Below, in pieces: positions 5,017 to 32,735 of a DNA stretch of 64,000 nucleotides (positions are counted from its first letter, which is position 1; the number at the start of each line of letters is the position of its first letter). The translations under genes and the position numbers were made by a program. The notes under the pieces are model-generated. The model made no database searches. It was not told the DNA's origin and worked only from the letters and a program-made list of their open reading frames with translations. The stretch comes from Candidatus Thorarchaeota archaeon (lineage in GTDB: Archaea; Asgardarchaeota; Thorarchaeia; Thorarchaeales; Thorarchaeaceae): contig JBHLRZ010000006.1 of assembly GCA_048882045.1 (NCBI GenBank), positions 32,001 through 96,000 on the forward strand, given 5' to 3'.

Positions 5017-5643
5017 TTGTCTTCTAGCAATCAATATTCAAAGGCAGAGGTTCTTGTCAAACAGGCCGCCTCATTGATCGAGAAGAAACAGTTCAGTAAG
5101 GCTTTGTCTAAACTGAAACACAGCCTTGCTATGGATCCAAGTAACACGCGAGTCTGGGAAGAGATAGTTGCCTGTAATCTTGAGATGGGGCAACCAAAGC
5201 AAGCAATAGAGGCACTGAATAATCTTCTGAAGATCGAACCAAACTCCTCATCGAGATGGGGTGACAAGGGTCTCATCCATCTTTTGTTGAATGAAAATAC
5301 TCAAGGGATTGAAGCGATTAAAGAGAGTCTGAGGATTCAGCCACGAAATGTGCATAAGTGGGAGCTACTGGCCACAGCCCTCATTGCTGACGAAAGATGG
5401 GATGAGGCGATCGATGCATTGGAAAGAACGCTTGATCTCAATCCTAACTCCGCTGTGACATGGTACAATCTCGCAGTTTGCTATCTCTATTATGAAGATT
5501 TCGGTGCAGCTCTCGAAGCCGTGGAATATGCCATTGCTCTTCAACCATCACTTGAAGATCTTGCGGAACCGTGGGTCGAACTCATTAGTGACGAAATGAT
5601 CGAGGAGGCATACTCACCACTTTCAGGGATAGCTGCTTCATAA
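5017..5643 (+). CDS. tetratricopeptide repeat protein
   Basis: About five 34-aa TPR units (A..MDP.N...W; AI.AL...L...P; WYNLAVCY). Confidence 0.9.
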   Translation: MSSSNQYSKAEVLVKQAASLIEKKQFSKALSKLKHSLAMDPSNTRVWEEIVACNLEMGQPKQAIEALNNLLKIEPNSSSRWGDKGLIHLLLNENTQGIEAIKESLRIQPRNVHKWELLATALIADERWDEAIDALERTLDLNPNSAVTWYNLAVCYLYYEDFGAALEAVEYAIALQPSLEDLAEPWVELISDEMIEEAYSPLSGIAAS

Positions 5644-5649
5644 CATAAT

Positions 5650-7551
5650 CTAAGATTTTTCTCCTTGAGGAGGTTTGATTTTATCCAATTCTTCTTGGAG
5701 CTGTTTCTCAATCTTACCAAGTTTGAAGTTCTTGGCTGATGCTATCGCCTGTTCTAAGGCAGATATGATTCTCTGCTCTTCTAGCTCTTTCTCAGTATTA
5801 TCTGCAATTTTTGGGAGTGCTTCGATCTTTCTTGGTATGACAGCAAGTAGACTCTCAATTGCGCTCTTCGCTTCATCTCGATTCGTAAATGACGAGTCTT
5901 GCTCAGTATCATAGGATGAAACAATTCTGTCAATCTGACTATAGAGACGTCTATACTCCTCATAGGCTCCAGACAATATCTGCCTTACCTCTCCTTCAGA
6001 ATCTGCTTCTTCAAGTGCATCAGAGAGTTTCTTCATAGCATTCTCAAGGAACTCCTTTCTCTCAGCAAGTTTAGTCCGTTTCCTTTCCATCCATCGCCAT
6101 TCATTCGAGATCTGTCGGGATAGGGTAAGTGCCTCGGTGATTGTTTCTCGAAACTCCGCAAACAGTTCCATTGCTTCCTTAAGTTCCACTTCAAGAGTTT
6201 CTATAACATGAACAAGTTGGTAGCTCAGCATATCACCTGCTTGGGCCTCAGCAAGAACCCTGCTCTCCTTGACGGTTCGTTCAGTATTAGCCCAGAGCTT
6301 CTCTACATCATCAGGATCACGATCTGTCCTCTTTCGGACCTCAAGTTCCTCTGAGAGTTGATGAATGTCATGATTGAGAGCTTGGAGTTCCTGGATCTTT
6401 GCTTTCAACAATGCCTTGCCAAGTCGGACGTTGAGCTCATCTGTGAGTAATTGTCGCTCTTCTGGAACCTCCAAGAGGGCGTGAGTGTTATCAACGAGAG
6501 TCTGAAGAGCGTTCTCATAATCCAAGACTGACTCGTGAAACAGACCCTCTTGATACCTATCATCACCCCTCTTCTCCAACTCAAGAGCGCTCTCTAGAAC
6601 ATCATAGGGAGAAGTTTTCAATAAGCTGTCTGCCCACATCGGAGGGATGTCAGTACAAATGTCGAGTGGTTTTCCTGCGATTCGTAAAAGAATGACTAGA
6701 ATCGATTCTGCGGTTGCTACATAGAGTTTGTCTTGATCCGCAGATATCCAGTTGATCTTCTGACCGTTGAGCTTCACAAGACCTACTTCTTCACCCCTCT
6801 TCAAATCCCAAACAACAATCGATCCTGAAGTCATTGCAGCGACCAGATAAAACTCACTAGCCCACATTGATGAAATAGAACTTGAGTGACTTGGTTCTAA
6901 TGTACGTAGAAGACTCCATTCAACTCTATCATAGACTGCTATCTCACCGGTAGATAATCCTACTATCACAAATTCATTATTACCCGATATTACACCGCCT
7001 TTGCCCTTCTTGTCTAGACTAGCAAGCTCTGAAGGAGCAGAGTTCTGGGACTTTAGCCATACCTTCGGTTCTTCCTTCTTCGTACTAGTACAGATGATTC
7101 GAGCGTCCGACCAGAGGTCCGTGATATCAGACTTATGTAGTTGCCAGCTTGAGGTTTCATGCGTATTCTTCTTGATGGAAACCAATCGTCCCTCTCTCGC
7201 ACCCACGTAGAAGTAGTCACCAGAAAGTGTCGATGTAAGAGCGTGGTAGCTCAGTTCAAACCAACCTTGGAGACCCCAGGTTTCTTTGTTCCAGACATAT
7301 ACTCTTCTCTCACAGGTAGCAAAGACTTGTGTTTCATCAACGTCGACAACCAATGGAGGAGTATCAGTTTCACCGAGTTCAGCTACTAAATGCCAATCTT
7401 CCTTCGACCACACACGGACTCGTTGATCCTCACAAGCAGTGTACAAGTACTTGTCATCATAAGTAATGTCAACTGCTGATGCATCTAGTGTATTAATTAC
7501 CTCATGAGTCAATGTCCTAAGATCATTGGAACTCGATGATCCTTTTTCCAT
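5650..7551 (-). CDS. WD40 beta-propeller protein with MIT/TPR-like helical bundle and long C-terminal coiled coil
   Basis: WD blades YLYTACEDQRVRVWS, HKSDITDLW, FVIVGLSTGEIAVYD, HSSSISSMW..SGSIVVWDL; C-terminal half E/K/L/R-rich helical; start refined to ATG 7551 (GGGGAGA upstream; track 7602). Confidence 0.8.
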   Translation of the reverse strand: MEKGSSSSNDLRTLTHEVINTLDASAVDITYDDKYLYTACEDQRVRVWSKEDWHLVAELGETDTPPLVVDVDETQVFATCERRVYVWNKETWGLQGWFELSYHALTSTLSGDYFYVGAREGRLVSIKKNTHETSSWQLHKSDITDLWSDARIICTSTKKEEPKVWLKSQNSAPSELASLDKKGKGGVISGNNEFVIVGLSTGEIAVYDRVEWSLLRTLEPSHSSSISSMWASEFYLVAAMTSGSIVVWDLKRGEEVGLVKLNGQKINWISADQDKLYVATAESILVILLRIAGKPLDICTDIPPMWADSLLKTSPYDVLESALELEKRGDDRYQEGLFHESVLDYENALQTLVDNTHALLEVPEERQLLTDELNVRLGKALLKAKIQELQALNHDIHQLSEELEVRKRTDRDPDDVEKLWANTERTVKESRVLAEAQAGDMLSYQLVHVIETLEVELKEAMELFAEFRETITEALTLSRQISNEWRWMERKRTKLAERKEFLENAMKKLSDALEEADSEGEVRQILSGAYEEYRRLYSQIDRIVSSYDTEQDSSFTNRDEAKSAIESLLAVIPRKIEALPKIADNTEKELEEQRIISALEQAIASAKNFKLGKIEKQLQEELDKIKPPQGEKS

Positions 7552-7767
7552 AATGTCTCCCCAAGAGAACAGTGTGATGAATGGATATTCTGGGTTTTGC
7601 AATACTTAAGGCAGTTTCTTTCTTGGCTAAACAGCGATAGAATGCAATAAAATGACATCTGGAGGAGGGGATATACATGATAAATTCGTTAAAATGGGAG
7701 GACCCACACAGAAAGAACTTAAGACATCCACCGCCAAATTAGCCCACATTAGACGGAGGTAGGCATC

Positions 7768-10458
7768 TTGGACACTAGTGGCTGGCGCCGAGAATTAGAC
7801 AAAATGGCTGAACTGAAAGGAATCCTAGTCTCAGTCAATCCTGCGATGGAAGAACAGTCAGATCGTCAGGTCAGACAGCTCTATGACATCTTCGCGAACT
7901 TGACTAAGATGGAGAACGATTTAGCAACTTCTGGATTTATGAAAAAGAGAAAGGTTCAGACTCAGGTCGAGAAGACAAGGAGTGATCTTGAAACCGATTT
8001 CATGAGAGTCACACGTGATTTCGCTGAGTACTTCCGGAAAGAACACAAAGATACTCTAGCTATCGCACCGAAAGTCCAGGCCCTAAAACCTTCTGAGGTC
8101 AAAGGGATTTCGACACTTAATTTTCCAGGCATCGGAGCAGGCGACCTCAAGGACTTCGAGAAGTTGCACGAGTTTGCAAAGGCATTTTCAAAGTTGTATC
8201 TTGTTATTCATGAGGATGTAGAACGCGATGTGAAATCTACCCTTGATGAGAACAAGGCTACAGTTGACACGTACGAACGTCACATATCTATCGATAAGAG
8301 TGAGGTTTCCACAACAGTTGCAAATGACGATGTTGCTGGAATGTCATTAAAAGACCTCATAATCCTGAATGACAAACTTCAGGCAGACCGTCAGTTCCTT
8401 GATGGCAGAAAGGACGAGGTGAGTAAACTCCTTGGTTCATCCCTTGTGGGTAAAACGGAATCACTACAAGCTTCTGTGGAGACTGCATCCAGACTAGGAC
8501 TTGAGTTGCCGATCGAATTCTCAAAGGAGTTGAGAATAATTGCCAGAGATGCATCAAAGGCCGAAACTCTGACTGCGCTGATTGCGTTGGAGAATCAACT
8601 GCATGCAGCAGAGGTCAAGATGGCAAATGCACTTCGTGACAAGATAATCAACATCAAGCATGATGTCACAGCCAAGATAGTGGAGGGCGGCATACCAACG
8701 ACTGCTGATGTGATACCTCCAGCACCTCCAGTTACAGTTGAAGGAGAGGGCATTGCTAGCCTGCTTTCCAGCTATCAGAGAATGGTCGAATGGGAAGGTC
8801 AGGTCAAGATCGCTCTCAGAGAACGCTTGTTCGAACTCCTTGATGATGTTGAGAAGGCGACTGAAGCGCCCGAAGACGCAGGTATCAAGGATATTGTTGC
8901 AGTACGTCAATTCATCGCGGATTCAAAGAAGAAACTGAAGCAGGTAGAGATTGACGAGATGGTGAGAGTCTACCTCCAAGCAAAACAGATGGATGATGAG
9001 TACCGAAGGAACATCACTGAGGCCATCCGCAACTATCTCTCAAGATTCAATGAACTAGCAACTTCAGCAGACAGAGTACTTGACCACGCACAGCTAAGTA
9101 AGAAGGCTCCGAAGGTCGAGGAACTTGAAGGAGGTATTGTCTACTTACTAGGTTCTCTCACGAGCCTCAGAGAAGCAGTTGACAGCGGAGTGGCAACTTT
9201 TCGCACCGCATGTCAACAGGAGATTGATGCAATAGTTCATGATCTTCAGACCGTCAAACCTGCATATGCTGAGATATTCATGCCCATTATTGTAGAACTC
9301 GATGAAGGATCAACCAGGATACAGGGGATGGATGACTTCTCTGAGATAAAATCAGAGATGCGCTCCATCAAAGATGGTATCCTTGTGAAAGCACAGGACG
9401 CACTTGAGAACCTCAGATATAGACTAGGTGTGAAGATCAGACTTGCAGCTGCAAAATTGATGGGTGCTGGTGTGGAGATCCCGCCAGACGCACAAGAAGC
9501 CATCAGCGAACTGAACAGCGTGGGTGTTGCAGCTGATAATGTGTTTAGTCTTCCAGCCATAGCCAGGAAGATGGTTGAGATCTATGAGAAGAAGATCCAA
9601 GACAAGATAATTGAGAAACTTGGAGTAGAAGTCGATTCTCTAATCACGAGTCTCGATAGAGCAAGCAGCATCGGAGTGAAGTTAGGAAAAGAACTCAAGA
9701 TGCTCAATGGTCTAAAAGCCAAACCACCAGCAGAGCTTGAGGAAGCAGCTGATGCATTTGACAAACTCCAGAATCTGACAACATCACCCAACGTTCACAA
9801 GAAGATCAGAGAGCGTGTTGATGAAGCCTATGTTCAGATCAAGGGAGCTCTGTCACTCTTTGAAGACCAAGGAATGTCTGAATTCGTCGAGCGGCTACAG
9901 ATTCTCATTGACCAAGTTCCTGCCAAGCTCGAAACTGACTCACCACATGTCAATGAGGCACTTGATGTGTGTCTCACTCTTGCCAACATCCAGGAAGAAA
10001 TGCTTCAGATGATTAAGAGCATAGCTGAGAAGAATGGTGAGGCTCATACTGCTGAACTCAAGGATAGAAGCCAGTACTTTTCGACAATCGAGAGAGTAGT
10101 AGCGAAGTATCCTGATGAATTCAGCAAGATAGTATTTGATGTCAAGAAGATGGACTCTCTAGAGTCTGGCCTCACAGAGGCGGTCGATCTTGATGTGGCC
10201 ATTGCTAACTTCCATGAATTGGGCGATATGAGAAAGCAGTGGCTGGAGAAAGCAGTCGCGATGGATGACTGGCACAAGTCCCTCAGAATGTTCATGACTG
10301 GTTTCAGTCCGACTGACAAACCTGATACACGTGACAAGTTCATCGACGACGCAATACGAAAGATTAAGGAGACCTACAGCCGTGAGGACATAAGTTCGTA
10401 CCTAAGTTGGGCCATAAGAGAGAGTGCCCAGGCGTTGGTCGATTCGAGGAAGAAATAG
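7768..10458 (+). CDS. 896-aa all-helical rod/coiled-coil repeat protein, first gene of tubulin-like operon
   Basis: Long ORF with GGAGGT RBS before TTG; no TM segment or Walker A; recurring helix-helix-G-hydrophobic unit about every 65 aa. Confidence 0.85.
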   Translation: MDTSGWRRELDKMAELKGILVSVNPAMEEQSDRQVRQLYDIFANLTKMENDLATSGFMKKRKVQTQVEKTRSDLETDFMRVTRDFAEYFRKEHKDTLAIAPKVQALKPSEVKGISTLNFPGIGAGDLKDFEKLHEFAKAFSKLYLVIHEDVERDVKSTLDENKATVDTYERHISIDKSEVSTTVANDDVAGMSLKDLIILNDKLQADRQFLDGRKDEVSKLLGSSLVGKTESLQASVETASRLGLELPIEFSKELRIIARDASKAETLTALIALENQLHAAEVKMANALRDKIINIKHDVTAKIVEGGIPTTADVIPPAPPVTVEGEGIASLLSSYQRMVEWEGQVKIALRERLFELLDDVEKATEAPEDAGIKDIVAVRQFIADSKKKLKQVEIDEMVRVYLQAKQMDDEYRRNITEAIRNYLSRFNELATSADRVLDHAQLSKKAPKVEELEGGIVYLLGSLTSLREAVDSGVATFRTACQQEIDAIVHDLQTVKPAYAEIFMPIIVELDEGSTRIQGMDDFSEIKSEMRSIKDGILVKAQDALENLRYRLGVKIRLAAAKLMGAGVEIPPDAQEAISELNSVGVAADNVFSLPAIARKMVEIYEKKIQDKIIEKLGVEVDSLITSLDRASSIGVKLGKELKMLNGLKAKPPAELEEAADAFDKLQNLTTSPNVHKKIRERVDEAYVQIKGALSLFEDQGMSEFVERLQILIDQVPAKLETDSPHVNEALDVCLTLANIQEEMLQMIKSIAEKNGEAHTAELKDRSQYFSTIERVVAKYPDEFSKIVFDVKKMDSLESGLTEAVDLDVAIANFHELGDMRKQWLEKAVAMDDWHKSLRMFMTGFSPTDKPDTRDKFIDDAIRKIKETYSREDISSYLSWAIRESAQALVDSRKK

Positions 10459-10470
10459 GAGTAAACACCA

Positions 10471-11862
10471 ATGTTCGGAAGTAGTCCACCTAGAACCCCC
10501 ATTGAAGACGATACCACAAAAGCAGCCGAGGTTTTCGCCATTGGAATTGGCGAATGTGGCTCAAACATCGTGGGATCCTACCTTCAGACAAGCAGGGACA
10601 AGAAACTACCCTCAAGAGTGAGGGGCTATCTACTCATCAACACTGACAGAGCAGACCTGACAAAGGTACGCCAAAAATATGGCATACCAAAAGAGAACAC
10701 ACTCCTATATGGTGCCAGCGAAATCGGTGTCGGTGGCCGGTTCATGGATGGTTATAATAGTATCATGGAATCAAAGGACATCATCTTCGACCAGCTCAGT
10801 AACTTGGGTTTCGAAGGCGTTTCAGGCTTCTGTATCTTCACAAGCCTTGGCGGTGGAACTGGTTGCGGAGGTACACCAGCACTCATCGAGCTGCTCAAGC
10901 AGAGATTCCAAGAAGAAGAAGGACGACGTATCTTTGTATATGTCATAGGAATCTTGCCCTTCGAGGGACAGTCTAGTGAGGCACTGAATTCAATCTGGGC
11001 TGTATCGAAGTTGCTTCGAGCTCAGCTCCAAGAACGTGGTGCAGACCTTACAATTCTACTATCAAACAGAACAATGCTGAAGAGAATCCTTCAATGGAGA
11101 AAGGGTGATACTGTAGACTACCTGCAGCGAGAGCTAGAGGTGGACATTGCAGACATCGAATCAATCGAAAAAATGGTCCCATCTACACTTGAGGAAGCGA
11201 GTGCAGCTGACGCGAGAACCGAACAGGCATTCGTCGAACTCGTCAACCCACTTGCTCTTGATGTCGTGGAGGCCATGTTATCACCAGGTGTGTGGGAAAA
11301 ATCAAAGGATGTCTTTCCAACCACAGATCTTGCAGACTATGCTAGAAAGCTAGATCCTGTTGTAGTACCTGCGCTCTATACTGACATTGGTCTCATACCT
11401 GACGCTGGGAGTATGCCCAAGCAGTTGAGGACAATGATTGACTATGCTGTGAAGGAGTGTTCATACGCTGACGTCGGTGAAGAACCGAATGCCGAGAGTG
11501 TCTACTATGTGATGTCAGGTCCAAGGCATGTTGCGAAAGCAGAATTTGGGATGCATGTGAAGGAAGCACTGGACAAGTTCATTGCTCCCGGTGCAGCTAT
11601 CACACCTTGTTACGTCCAATACCTTGACCAAGACCCTAAGACCAACCTGCTTCTTCTCCTTGGCTTGCCAAAGATACCTGAACTTGTTCAGATCATCAAT
11701 GAAGCTACCCAGCTGGTGAATCTTCACAGTGGTGCCTCACCACTCAAGCAAGGATGGTTCATGAGGTCGAAGGGTACTACTCGAAAAGAACTCGTTGATG
11801 CTATCAATGACTTCCGTGAACTCTTCAGTTACTACATGACTCCAGGAGAAACAATGGAATAG
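10471..11862 (+). CDS. divergent tubulin/FtsZ/CetZ superfamily GTPase
   Basis: T1 GIGECGSNI (from 10543), INTD, GVGG, signature SLGGGTGCGG (GGGTGCG at 10849-10869), ILPF, LSN, T7-like TDLAD (11323); AGGAG RBS. Confidence 0.93.
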   Translation: MFGSSPPRTPIEDDTTKAAEVFAIGIGECGSNIVGSYLQTSRDKKLPSRVRGYLLINTDRADLTKVRQKYGIPKENTLLYGASEIGVGGRFMDGYNSIMESKDIIFDQLSNLGFEGVSGFCIFTSLGGGTGCGGTPALIELLKQRFQEEEGRRIFVYVIGILPFEGQSSEALNSIWAVSKLLRAQLQERGADLTILLSNRTMLKRILQWRKGDTVDYLQRELEVDIADIESIEKMVPSTLEEASAADARTEQAFVELVNPLALDVVEAMLSPGVWEKSKDVFPTTDLADYARKLDPVVVPALYTDIGLIPDAGSMPKQLRTMIDYAVKECSYADVGEEPNAESVYYVMSGPRHVAKAEFGMHVKEALDKFIAPGAAITPCYVQYLDQDPKTNLLLLLGLPKIPELVQIINEATQLVNLHSGASPLKQGWFMRSKGTTRKELVDAINDFRELFSYYMTPGETME

Positions 11863-11878
11863 AAACGGTGGTGTCAAA

Positions 11879-12946
11879 TTGTCTGACTCTTCATTCCACT
11901 ACGAGGACCTTATCGATAGGCTTCTTCTTATAATCACCCTGAACTCGACACTGATCCACTTTCTCTTAGGCTCACAGGTTGAGGACAGCATAGATCCGGA
12001 CCGGGTTGATTCTTTGACTCAAGGACTTGTTAGAACCCGGAAGTGGATGGAAGAGGCAACCACAATGAAAGGCATCCCTCCTTCAACACAGAATATCATG
12101 AGCCTCATTGTAAAGCGACTCTCACAGGTTGAGAGTCTTCTGCCCAAGCTATCAAACAAAGCGAAGCAAATGGAGTCTGGTGCCGCAACACAGGAGATCC
12201 TCTCCCTATTGGATGGAGCTGAAGCTGCTCCGAGAGCTGCTAGTGCAAGTCCTGATTCTTCAACAACAACTGCAGATGGCGAGATTATCCCACTTGTTGG
12301 TGGTGAAACAGCCAAGCCAATGGAGGCATATCGTAAGGTCGATGTCGAAGATGACCAGTTTGGTCTCATCGGACAGAGTCAGCGGCTCATTCAGCAGAAG
12401 AGTGCTTCTTGTCACGTGCTGCTTCCAACATTTTGGTTAGAAGTCCTTAGAGAGATCCATAGGTATCGCTCAGATTCGCCCTATTTTGGAGACGTAGTTG
12501 AGTTACCCGCTCGCATACTAGTAAAGACAGCTAAGGGACTTCTGACAGAGGCCCCAGGTGCAAGACTTCTCCAGGATCTAATGAAGTCAAGACAACAGGA
12601 GAATTACCTCAACCCATCAGAAATGGAACGAATAGAACGTGCTGTCGCAAAATACTACCAGGGAGTTGAGCCCATACTGAGAGAGAAAGAGGTTGAGGTC
12701 AAAGACAAGATACTCGAAGCCCAGACAGCTTTCGATGGGTTCAACTGGGGTGGTCCAGAATTGGAAAAGAGGATCATAAAGCGATTGAATCAGCAGGTAG
12801 AAGAAGCAATTCAAGCAGCTGAAACAGGAACCGATACCGCTCGTCAGGTCATCCATGCAGAAATTGCTAAGTTACTCTGCAAACTTCAACATGCTCTTCT
12901 GGCTGAACCGAGACCCCGAGAGATCCTCACTCAGATGAAACCATAG
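11879..12946 (+). CDS. hypothetical helical protein, third gene of tubulin-like operon
   Basis: 355-aa ORF 16 bp after the GTPase stop, GGTGGTG RBS; helical domains separated by an A/S/T-rich linker. Confidence 0.8.
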   Translation: MSDSSFHYEDLIDRLLLIITLNSTLIHFLLGSQVEDSIDPDRVDSLTQGLVRTRKWMEEATTMKGIPPSTQNIMSLIVKRLSQVESLLPKLSNKAKQMESGAATQEILSLLDGAEAAPRAASASPDSSTTTADGEIIPLVGGETAKPMEAYRKVDVEDDQFGLIGQSQRLIQQKSASCHVLLPTFWLEVLREIHRYRSDSPYFGDVVELPARILVKTAKGLLTEAPGARLLQDLMKSRQQENYLNPSEMERIERAVAKYYQGVEPILREKEVEVKDKILEAQTAFDGFNWGGPELEKRIIKRLNQQVEEAIQAAETGTDTARQVIHAEIAKLLCKLQHALLAEPRPREILTQMKP

Positions 12947-13027: not shown

Positions 13028-14434
13028 ATGACTGGCCTAAAGACTATGTTGAATCCAAAAGTGACTGCTGTTGTAGGTGTTTCGACTACTAATCCTTTCA
13101 GTCCAGGTAATGTAATCTTCAGAAAATTGGAATTCGAAAATGGTTTGCCTACATACCCCATTAATCCTAAGGGAGGGAAGGTCGAAGGGATTCCTGTCCA
13201 CAAGTCCATCACTGCTGCACCTGATGACATTGAGTTGGCAGTGATCTCGGTTCCTGCAAAATATGTACCAGGTGTGTTAAGGGAGTGTGGAGAGAAGAAG
13301 ATACGGTCAGTCATAGTGGTCTCAGGAGGATTCAGTGAAGTTGGAGAAACCGGTGCAAATCTTCAATCAGAAATTGTCGAGATTGCAAACCAATACAAAA
13401 TATCCATGGTCGGACCAAACTGCATTGGTGTGTTTGTCCCAGATGTCCTAGATACATTTTTCCTTCCCTCTGAAAGGGTTGCACGACCTAGAAAGGGGAA
13501 AGTAGCAGTCATATCACAGAGTGGAGGTTGGCTGATCGAGCGACTTGAAGAGTTTGCAGATAGAGATGTAGGTATTGCTGCTGCAATTTCAATTGGTAAC
13601 TCTGCTCAGACAAAAGTGACTGATTTCATCAGGTACTTTGGAAATGAAAAGACTGTGGATGTCATTTGTGCATATATTGAAGGCTTCGGACAAGATGAAG
13701 GGAGAGAGTTTGTTGAAACATGCAAGGAGATTGTACTGAAAAAGCCAGTTATTGTTCTGAAAGGTGGAGAATCGGAAGCTGGTCACCGAGCGACACAAAG
13801 TCACACATCATCTTTAGCTGGAGACAATGCAATAACAAATGCAGCTTTCCAACAGTATGGGGTGATTCGTGCACTCGATGAGGATGAGGTGATGGCATAC
13901 TCGAAGGTGTTTTCGTTCAAACCGAAACCTATGCTTGGACCTCGTATCGGCACATTGACCGTGAGCGGTGGTCATGGAGTCATAGCCAGTGACGAAGCGT
14001 CTCATTATGGTCTCACAATGCCGCCATTCAGTCAGGAAGAACAATCTATAATGAGAGCACAGATGACGCCAGCATATCAAGGGATTGCATCATTTAGGAA
14101 TCCATGTGATCTCACTGGTAGTGCTGCAGATGTTGATTACGAACGTGTCTTGGATAAAATGCTCAGTTTTGATTCAATAGATGCTGCACTTCTACTGTTA
14201 CTACCATATGCTCCAGGTATCTCACTTCAGATTGGCGCGAGAGTGGCAAATGTTGCAAAAAGTCATGACAAGACTATTGTAGCTTACGTTCCAGACCTTG
14301 ACAAATACGAAGTGATCATTCGAGGATTTGAGTTGAACGGTATTGCAGTCGGGGATACAATTGAAGAGGCTGTCCAAATGGTGAATGCGATCCGGAAGAG
14401 GACGAAATATCTTCAACGCTTAGGAAAGTTATGA
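13028..14434 (+). CDS. acdA: acetate/acyl-CoA ligase (ADP-forming) alpha subunit
   Basis: CoA-binding domain, GPNCIG, SQSGG, SIGN, phospho-His SHTSSLAG, NPCDLTG. Confidence 0.88.
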   Translation: MTGLKTMLNPKVTAVVGVSTTNPFSPGNVIFRKLEFENGLPTYPINPKGGKVEGIPVHKSITAAPDDIELAVISVPAKYVPGVLRECGEKKIRSVIVVSGGFSEVGETGANLQSEIVEIANQYKISMVGPNCIGVFVPDVLDTFFLPSERVARPRKGKVAVISQSGGWLIERLEEFADRDVGIAAAISIGNSAQTKVTDFIRYFGNEKTVDVICAYIEGFGQDEGREFVETCKEIVLKKPVIVLKGGESEAGHRATQSHTSSLAGDNAITNAAFQQYGVIRALDEDEVMAYSKVFSFKPKPMLGPRIGTLTVSGGHGVIASDEASHYGLTMPPFSQEEQSIMRAQMTPAYQGIASFRNPCDLTGSAADVDYERVLDKMLSFDSIDAALLLLLPYAPGISLQIGARVANVAKSHDKTIVAYVPDLDKYEVIIRGFELNGIAVGDTIEEAVQMVNAIRKRTKYLQRLGKL

Positions 14435-31652: not shown

Positions 31653-32735
31653 TTGTTGAACTATCATCTAGTCCTGACCCGAAGGTGCAATCTCAACTGC
31701 CTGTACTGTCATGGCGGCGAGGAAACTGGACCAGATACAGAGATACAGTACTCGCTTGATGACTTGGAATCTTTCTTGGAGAAGGACAACAACGCTCAGC
31801 TCATGCTGTACGGTGGAGAGCCTACATTACGACCAAATCTCATTATCGAACTAATGGATCGTTTTCCTTCTACTCGTTTCATGCTTCAGACCAATGCGCT
31901 TCTCATGGACAAACTGCCAGAGGACTATGTCAAACGATTTCATTCCATCCTGGTTTCCATTGATGGGACTGAAGCAACCACTGACCGATATCGTTCACAG
32001 GGAGTCTATCAGAAAGTGATGAATAACGTCCAATGGCTACATGACATTGGTTTCGAGGGAGACATTGTTGCTAGGATGGCAGTATCAGAGCAATCAGATA
32101 TCCATAGTGAAGTTCGTCACCTTCTTGATGTAGAGCCTTCTTTCAATCATGTCCACTGGCAATTGAATGTCATATGGGATGCTGAAGACAATTGGACAGA
32201 TTTTGATAAATGGGTGAAGGAGTCATACAATCCAGGAATTACACATTTGGTGGATACGTGGGTTTCAAAAATGAATGATGGAATAGTTGAAGGGATTGTT
32301 CCATTCATACCCTTGATGCACTCGCTCATGACTGGGAATAAATCAGAGATGAGGTGTGGGTCTGGACTGGATACTTTCGCCATTCATATTGATGGGAGTA
32401 TTGGAGTGTGTCCAATCTCTCCAGATTGGGACTTCTCAATAGTGGGTAATATCTATGAAACAGAACCCAAAGATCTGATGAACTGTATGAGGGTCGATGA
32501 ACCCTGCTCATCCTGCAAGGAGTTTGAAGTATGTGGAGGTCGTTGTCTTTTTGCAAACAAACAACGGCTATGGGGAGAGAGTGGTTTTGAGAAGGTTTGC
32601 GACATAACTAAGCACTTGATTGATGAACTCAAACGAGTTGCGCCAAAAGTGCAAGAGATAGTTTCGGATGGCAAGATTTCGATTGAAGACTTTGTATATC
32701 CAGAATTTAACAATGGATGTGAGATCATACCATAG
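31653..32735 (+). CDS. radical SAM/SPASM protein (AF0577/TIGR04084-like)
   Basis: CNLNCLYC, YGGEP, SIDG, HWQL, CGSG..C..CSSC....CGGRC, C-terminal EIIP. Confidence 0.85.
   Translation: MLNYHLVLTRRCNLNCLYCHGGEETGPDTEIQYSLDDLESFLEKDNNAQLMLYGGEPTLRPNLIIELMDRFPSTRFMLQTNALLMDKLPEDYVKRFHSILVSIDGTEATTDRYRSQGVYQKVMNNVQWLHDIGFEGDIVARMAVSEQSDIHSEVRHLLDVEPSFNHVHWQLNVIWDAEDNWTDFDKWVKESYNPGITHLVDTWVSKMNDGIVEGIVPFIPLMHSLMTGNKSEMRCGSGLDTFAIHIDGSIGVCPISPDWDFSIVGNIYETEPKDLMNCMRVDEPCSSCKEFEVCGGRCLFANKQRLWGESGFEKVCDITKHLIDELKRVAPKVQEIVSDGKISIEDFVYPEFNNGCEIIP

Follow-up and report, generated by a model that had tools for sequence, protein, structure and literature searches.

A conserved three-gene module unites an Asgard tubulin-superfamily GTPase with two families of helical proteins

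Can three closely spaced genes of an archaeon encode a cytoskeletal system of their own? The question is raised by a 64,000-nucleotide stretch of DNA, hereafter called the window, from Candidatus Thorarchaeota archaeon (positions 32,001 to 96,000 of contig JBHLRZ010000006.1, assembly GCA_048882045.1), in which three genes on the forward strand are separated by gaps of 12 bp and 16 bp. The first gene (window positions 7768 to 10458, with an alternative ATG start at 7804) encodes an all-helical protein of 896 amino acids, here named Rod. The second (10471 to 11862) encodes a 463-amino-acid GTPase of the tubulin superfamily that belongs to the Asg.Tub clade, and the third (11879 to 12946) encodes a helical partner of 355 amino acids, named Hel. 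An earlier note on this DNA proposed an undescribed filament system formed by these genes, of particular interest should the host be an Asgard archaeon, as the closest homologs indicate it is. We find that rod, the GTPase gene, and hel form a conserved and co-inherited module that roughly one in three Asgard species possesses. Our preferred explanation, to which we assign a probability of roughly 0.6, is that this operon encodes a lineage-specific Asgard filament system of the tubulin superfamily, made up of a polymerising GTPase and two dedicated accessory proteins.

Each gene of the trio is preceded by a Shine-Dalgarno-like sequence 6-9 nt from its start codon. Specifically, GGAGGT precedes the TTG at 7768 (rod), AGGAG precedes the ATG at 10471 (GTPase), and GGTGGTG precedes the TTG at 11879 (hel). 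The gene coordinates, gaps, and ribosome-binding sites described by the earlier note all agree with the open reading frames and the sequence, and the three co-oriented genes probably constitute one operon. A search for RNA runs containing the operon returned none. In loci from other lineages, adjacent genes of the trio directly abut or share 1-14 nt (for example in L065, L067, and L092), and hel often overlaps the stop codon of the GTPase gene, an arrangement that fits translational coupling. A candidate GTPase-hel fusion in genome G384 (an 832-amino-acid open frame) was rejected, as inspection revealed two separate abutting genes.

Is this arrangement merely fortuitous? Synteny was examined in a sample of 80 loci, with one genome per species, together with loci recovered by exact protein look-up. 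In every locus with enough flanking sequence (more than 80 loci), the GTPase gene has a rod ortholog as its immediate upstream neighbour and a hel ortholog as its immediate downstream neighbour, and two seeming exceptions proved to be N-masked rods. The order is kept in at least seven lineages, namely the Thor, Hermod, Borr, Sif, Baldr, and Heimdall/Hod lineages and "Asgardarchaeia". When 18 loci from ten groups were compared all-against-all, only the rod, GTPase, and hel families were common to nine or ten groups, a synthetase gene being common to three and a small Arf-like GTPase also to three. Because the same arrangement recurs in every related locus examined, it is not a product of chance.

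The phyletic profiles of the three families likewise coincide. Among 400 Asgard species genomes, approximately 128 have the GTPase, 129 have Rod, and 123 have Hel. The corresponding counts for GTPase, Hel, and Rod by host family are 75, 73, and 76 of 85 genomes in f1; 22, 20, and 22 of 22 in f11; and 16, 16, and 16 of 19 in f14, with four of each in f6 and five of each in f30. No match for any of the three proteins was found in f22 (135 genomes), f8 (31 genomes), f10, f13, or f21. Within Thorarchaeota, sequence identity is mostly 84-97% for the GTPase, 58-94% for Rod, and 65-89% for Hel. That the three genes named in the earlier note form a conserved module is thus borne out by both gene order and matching phyletic profiles.

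Two observations concern copy number. About half of the Heimdall-type (f11) genomes have two copies of the GTPase gene, and all have a single hel. Furthermore, a paralogous rod and GTPase pair (1141 and 444 amino acids, 11 bp apart) with no hel gene is present in genomes G067 (L088:8920-13680) and G072 (L089:5560-10331), and a convergent gene for a Gtr1/RagA-type GTPase of 740 amino acids lies just downstream of this pair.

By its sequence, the middle protein is a GTPase of the tubulin/FtsZ superfamily. It matches the Pfam Tubulin family PF00091 with 71.8 bits (E 1e-19; cut-off 33), and a comparison of 16 members of its family, 50-90% identical, reveals invariant loops T1 (GxGECGxN), T3 (GVGG-F-xGY), T4 (GGGTGCGG), T5, T6 (SN), and T7 (T285-D286-x-x-D289). 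Together these results confirm the GTP-binding loops that had been recognised in this gene. FtsZ_C, Tubulin_C (PF03953), and CetZ_C (PF21011) were all undetected in a Pfam search to E 1. The protein scores 31 bits with the FtsZ equivalog model TIGR00065 (cut-off 295.2), and its 19.7 bits with Pfam Tubulin_2 are also below threshold (cut-off 27). Its best relatives of solved structure, judged by both sequence and family profile, are CetZ1 (4b46; E 6e-12), a Methanosaeta CetZ (3zid), and CetZ2 (4b45), followed by Odin tubulin, BtubA, tubulins, and AtubA at E values from 5e-5 to 5e-4; no FtsZ is among the top 60 matches. The family carries an insert of its own, approximately 40 amino acids long, at residues 205-250 preceding H7, and its signature GGGTGCG has Cys in place of the Ser or Thr of the superfamily motif GGGTG(S/T)G.

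This GTPase family has been named before. Asg.Tub was presented as a "novel CetZ-like group in Asgardarchaeota", a clade of four sequences with an unstable position between CetZ and tubulins, an unmatched C-terminus, and gene neighbours that were described as unknown and mostly coiled-coil (Santana-Molina, del Saz-Navarro & Devos, 2023; PMC9871819). The four sequences in the supplement of that paper are from Thor SMTZ1-83, Thor AB-25, Heimdall LC-3, and Heimdall B3-JM-08. Membership of the window GTPase in this clade is shown directly, because the supplement sequences share its motifs (GIGECGSN, GGGTGCGGTP, and TTDLADY) and its C-terminus, and because the AB_25 contig is our locus L012, whose GTPase is 95% identical to that of the window. 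The LC_3 member corresponds to our sequence P0118. Thus, "undescribed" was too strong a word for the GTPase itself. The 2023 report reveals no conserved trio, partner families, distribution, or experiments, and in the literature that we searched we found no experiments on the family, no account of its operon, and no description of the conserved trio, of the two orphan families that accompany the GTPase, or of the trio's distribution.

The closest homologs of the window GTPase (84-97% identical) come from metagenome-assembled genomes (MAGs) of Thorarchaeota, and those at 50-63% identity come from the Hermod-, Borr-, Sif-, Baldr-, Heimdall-, and Hodarchaeales and from "Asgardarchaeia". Among 1.84 billion representatives searched, members of the family scored 689 and 489 bits, a lone sister scored 153 bits, and all others, including CetZ and other divergent groups, scored at most 76 bits. 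A tree of 61 rows was computed with the LG+C20+F+G4 model (posterior mean site frequency approximation, PMSF), ultrafast bootstrap, and the Shimodaira-Hasegawa-like approximate likelihood-ratio test (SH-aLRT), and was rooted on FtsZ. In this tree the Asg.Tub family is monophyletic and Asgard-only (support 100/99), and it is joined to a few long-branched sister sequences at 91/89 and 97/92. A branch with 93/90 support places family and sisters together with bona fide tubulins and a Methanosarcinales-type clade. The family nevertheless falls outside the tubulin clade (100/100), and also outside the core CetZ clade (13 of 15 CetZ rows; 99/97), and the genome's own FtsZ1 and FtsZ2 form a separate clade with support of 98-100. 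The sequence phylogeny therefore agrees with the divergent character attributed to the protein earlier, in that the GTPase family is not nested in canonical FtsZ or CetZ.

If so, could the protein still be an Asgard ortholog of CetZ that performs the CetZ job, with flanking genes that are incidental, lineage-specific neighbours? CetZ1 of Haloferax volcanii functions in cell-shape control. The closest solved relatives of the GTPase are all CetZ proteins, one Heimdall LC_3 member is annotated as "Tubulin-like protein CetZ", and Asg.Tub has been called CetZ-like (PMC9871819). The GTPase further resembles H. volcanii CetZ1 (4b46) in having a T1 of the Q/E-x-G type and a T7 of the FtsZ type, with its pair of acidic residues, and in its probable non-division role beside FtsZ1 and FtsZ2. 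A tree constrained to unite the family, its sisters, and CetZ in a single clade is worse by 13.1 log-likelihood units, and the approximately unbiased (AU) test does not reject it (p 0.145), which leaves a deep CetZ relative and a protein nearer to tubulins undistinguished as deeper placements suggested by the sequences. However, CetZ_C, which yields 167-184 bits in true CetZ matches, is lacking in P0002 and in the Baldr member P0367, and the 40-amino-acid insert and longer C-terminal helical region also differ from CetZ. When the tree is left unconstrained, the family is found outside core CetZ, on the side of the 93/90 branch that contains the tubulins. Moreover, rod and hel track the GTPase gene in every lineage and nowhere else, and so are not incidental, whereas CetZ genes do not have this gene context, and dedicated operon partners are not reported for them (PMC9871819). 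Given this evidence, we consider a plain CetZ ortholog unlikely.

Affinities with the tubulins can be stated with similar precision. Like the Asgard tubulins (OdinTubulin and AtubA/B; 7evb, 9f6t), the GTPase has a T1 of the form GxCG and a T3 of the form G-x-G-x-x-F-x-x-G-Y, and the two groups share the same side of the 93/90 branch. Unlike them, it has no detected Tubulin_C and matches them weakly (E ~5e-4), and its T7 (T-D-L-A-D) is of the FtsZ/CetZ type rather than the N-x-D-x-x-E/K type of tubulins. Bona fide tubulins, recognised by Tubulin_C, occur in 8 of the 400 Asgard genomes, in families f10, f21, f28, and f29. None of these tubulin-bearing families has the trio, and no trio-bearing family has a Tubulin_C match, although the numbers are small and the genomes related.

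How might such a GTPase function? In the tubulin/FtsZ superfamily, the nucleotide on which the T7 acids act is always that of the adjacent subunit, and no characterised superfamily member with an intact T7 is known to lack polymerisation. When the family is aligned with FtsZ, CetZ, and Asgard tubulins, its T7 segment TDLAD stands opposite NLDYAD of FtsZ and VDTAD of CetZ. Viewed in light of what is known of the superfamily, the retention of both T7 acids argues for head-to-tail assembly. The Asg.Tub GTPase is expected to bind GTP, and its subunits most likely stack head to tail to form protofilaments. As in FtsZ, CetZ, and tubulin, the T7 aspartates of one subunit would then complete the active site of the next. 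Alternatively, instead of forming a cytoskeletal polymer, the GTPase might be a nucleotide-dependent switch or a small oligomer in a complex with Rod and Hel, with a task such as membrane remodelling or trafficking. The invariant T7 aspartates, which are relevant only in stacked subunits, speak against this alternative, whereas the insert and the T4 Cys could change longitudinal contacts, the partners have novel folds, and genes for Arf/Rag-type GTPases lie within 9 kb of the trio in three lineages. We judge such a switch to be decidedly unlikely.

The same genome encodes FtsZ1 and FtsZ2 elsewhere. The trio is therefore a third, separate system, which would serve something other than division, and the process that it serves may be cell shape or membrane architecture. 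These true FtsZ genes, and the wide gap between the score of the GTPase and the FtsZ equivalog cut-off, also distinguish the trio from FtsZ acting with ZipA, SepF, or EzrA.

In the filament system that we favor, Rod and Hel would be dedicated accessory proteins made in step with the GTPase. Both had been described as almost wholly helical proteins of no known family, and this description is upheld by AlphaFold models and by null results with Pfam and NCBIfam. The model of Rod (predicted local distance difference test, pLDDT, 86.6; predicted template-modelling score, pTM, 0.39) contains approximately 30 helices arranged in successive bundles. A sequence profile search of the PDB with Rod returned only designed helical proteins, and Foldseek found no specific fold there (best E 0.028, a designed or generic helical protein). 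Its look-alikes in the ESM Atlas are confined to its own cluster, and a wide VIA-align search with Rod and Hel produced only generic three-helix or helical-bundle matches with Z scores of at most 11.3, which is below the meaningful level for helical bundles; these matches covered mainly the N-terminal parts. Spectrin-like periodicity is unsupported at the sequence level, with hhalign comparisons between five segments of Rod revealing no internal repeats above 20% probability, and homology between Rod and Hel has a probability of 1.3%. The best-conserved stretch of Rod is its C-terminal 100 residues, and the Heimdall proteins are approximately 270 residues longer. As a long helical-bundle protein, Rod (900-1170 amino acids among its orthologs) is functionally analogous to EzrA, to which no homology was detected. 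It is most likely a filament-associated scaffold or bundler.

The predicted structure of Hel (pLDDT 80 overall and above 90 in the C-domain) comprises an N-terminal three-helix region (residues 3-99), a disordered linker (101-146), and a globular helical C-domain (150-355) in which the words EAPxARLLQ and FNWG..LEKRI are conserved. Hel has no Pfam, NCBIfam, or PDB sequence match, and its profile search against the PDB returned only designed proteins. Foldseek gave a best E value of 0.11 to a designed or generic helical protein, and the ESM Atlas held no look-alikes (template-modelling score at most 0.27 in a shape search). None of the fold searches produced a match for Hel, though they barely tested the C-domain alone. 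Hel is most likely an adaptor that binds through its conserved C-domain. A prediction of the GTPase-Hel complex, made with alignments, gave a score of 0.19 (mark 0.32) and constitutes evidence neither way.

The first helix of Hel deserves separate mention. The flanking genes had been said to encode no transmembrane segments, which holds with the caveat that this helix is hydrophobic, with a 19-residue Kyte-Doolittle mean of 1.6 in the window protein (residues 1-40, window positions 11879-12000). The feature recurs in 14 of 15 Hel orthologs (1.2-2.1), around a conserved central Asn. Hydrophobic helix, disordered linker, and globular C-domain together form a layout like that of ZipA, a functional analogy with no detected homology, and this layout makes a membrane-tether role possible. 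Through the helix and its flexible linker, Hel may attach the filament to the membrane, although we hold this specific role to be doubtful. Heimdall orthologs of Hel have an extra polar N-terminal extension of 35-55 amino acids, with the word FW(S/T)SRGN before the hydrophobic helix.

Several points weigh against the filament system as a whole or in part. We infer polymerisation from the GTP-binding loops and T7, and the putative functions of Rod and Hel from their shape and gene position. The Cys in T4, where tubulins have Ser, and the insert before H7 might alter assembly. The second rod and GTPase pair without a second hel indicates that Hel is not needed in equal copy number. Finally, the hydrophobicity of the Hel helix is borderline for a membrane segment, and the helix is modelled within the three-helix bundle, so that it may instead be the core of this bundle or an oligomerisation surface.

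Other members of the superfamily provide precedents for this type of organisation. In the BtubA/BtubB-BtubC system of Prosthecobacter and in TubZ-TubR-TubY systems, one operon encodes both the polymer and helical accessory proteins with a stabilising or modulating effect on it. The trio follows the same operon logic, in which a superfamily polymer has its own helical accessory proteins. BtubC is also mentioned in the paper that named Asg.Tub (PMC9871819). Despite this shared logic, neither Rod nor Hel has any sequence or fold relation to BtubC (a tetratricopeptide repeat, or TPR, protein), TubR (a DNA-binding protein), or TubY.

Does the trio, then, represent a TubZ-like DNA-partition system of a plasmid, a virus, or an integrated element? 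Such systems likewise combine a divergent tubulin-like GTPase with a small operon and unfamiliar partners, and there is the sub-threshold Tubulin_2 match noted above. However, the trio is chromosomal and vertically inherited, with a distribution that follows host families; GC content is uniform across the window; and the genes occupy the same place beside housekeeping genes throughout Thorarchaeota. Neither partner belongs to a helix-turn-helix (HTH) or ribbon-helix-helix (RHH) family, and the upstream intergenic region has no iterons or iterated centromere-like repeats, just chance two-copy words. A partition system is exceedingly unlikely on these grounds.

We return to the three-gene filament system and its possible significance. 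Judged from sequence, the trio probably gives a group of archaea closely related to eukaryotes a filament system that has yet to be explored. Whereas few Asgard genomes encode bona fide tubulins, this tubulin-like system occurs in about a third of species, including those of the Heimdall/Hodarchaeales. If Rod and Hel bind the filament, then they represent new families of cytoskeleton-associated proteins, and if the GTPase family truly lies between CetZ and tubulin, then it is relevant to how FtsZ-like polymers gave way to tubulin-like ones. A more far-reaching proposal is that the trio is a third, ancient Asgard cytoskeleton of the tubulin superfamily that arose on the stem to tubulins after CetZ, with a giant scaffold and a membrane tether as partners. 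We regard this proposal as improbable. If true, Rod and Hel would be the first prokaryotic case of dedicated proteins with new folds that bind a filament, and the system would serve as a model of how a pre-tubulin polymer gained accessory proteins along the line of descent that led to eukaryotes.

How far does the module extend along the chromosome? Upstream of rod, on the opposite strand, is a gene for a WD40 propeller with a long helical tail (5650 to 7602; WD40-type Pfam matches over residues 40-305), and 6 bp from its stop codon ends a TPR gene on the forward strand (5017 to 5643; TPR_1/TPR_2 matches). The earlier note placed the WD40 gene about 215 bp from rod, and the distance is indeed 216 bp if its start is the ATG at 7551, or 165 bp from the start of the longer reading frame; the position given for the TPR gene was likewise correct. 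Between the divergent genes, region 7603 to 7767 is the presumed operon promoter, with AT-rich TATA-like words that include TTAAAA near 7690. The head-to-head layout and the shared intergenic region of 165-216 bp are kept in most Thorarchaeota loci, as would be the case if WD40 and TPR proteins were integral parts of a five-gene module. However, both genes are near the operon only in Thorarchaeota, where the downstream acyl-CoA synthetase gene, which is unrelated, is conserved equally well. Even there, the two genes do not accompany every locus: L020, L055, and L059 lack the WD40 gene, in L021 and L031 it is displaced by approximately 2.4 kb, and it is not in the neighbourhood in any other lineage. 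Because of this restricted and uneven occurrence, we exclude the WD40 and TPR genes from the conserved module and regard them as synteny at the level of a lineage, and a five-gene system is very unlikely. In this respect the membership proposed earlier was not sustained.

No secE/nusG, sepF, or tubR-like gene was found near the trio, consistent with the absence claimed for them previously; the genes that do adjoin it include an amino-acid kinase gene, a molybdopterin-oxidoreductase-like gene, and the ADP-forming acyl-CoA synthetase-like gene discussed below.

Genes for small Arf/Rag-family GTPases are found within 9 kb of the trio in Heimdall and "Asgardarchaeia" genomes and at a paralog locus (L001:102-1037, L004:4532-5113, L083:818-1753, L084:906-1856, and L089:10379-12601), and the gene in L004 lies directly upstream of rod. 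This proximity may be due to chance, because Asgard genomes hold many such genes. In locus L004, which is from one "Asgardarchaeia" MAG, the GTPase gene (8001-9323) is split into pieces of 389 and 42 amino acids, as a result of a frameshift, pseudogene formation, or an assembly error.

The nearest sister GTPases, P0370, P0501, and P0567, are also encoded in tight pairs with proteins of 262, 1085, or 612 amino acids (L091:8001-10149, L108:954-5748, and L109:637-4491). None of these partners is clearly homologous to Rod or Hel; the strongest candidate is a weak match (34% probability) between the downstream 262-amino-acid protein and the FNWG...LEKRI region of the Hel C-domain. Locus L109 additionally contains a gene for an FHA protein, and a Vps4-like MIT-AAA gene lies approximately 6 kb downstream. 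In host family f27, the sole weak matches to the Asg.Tub profile (E ~1e-8) are to a tubulin-superfamily gene of 375 amino acids in genome G297 (L090:8407-9534), which groups with FtsZ in the tree.

Downstream of hel, an 81-bp gap with a TATA-like word separates the trio from the ADP-forming acyl-CoA synthetase-like gene (window positions 13028-14434; CoA_binding_2 and Succ_CoA_lig). This gene probably has its own promoter, as suggested by the sequence ATATAAGG located approximately 40 nt upstream. It is found 3′ of the trio in Thor, Borr, and Sif loci, and we take its presence there as plain synteny.

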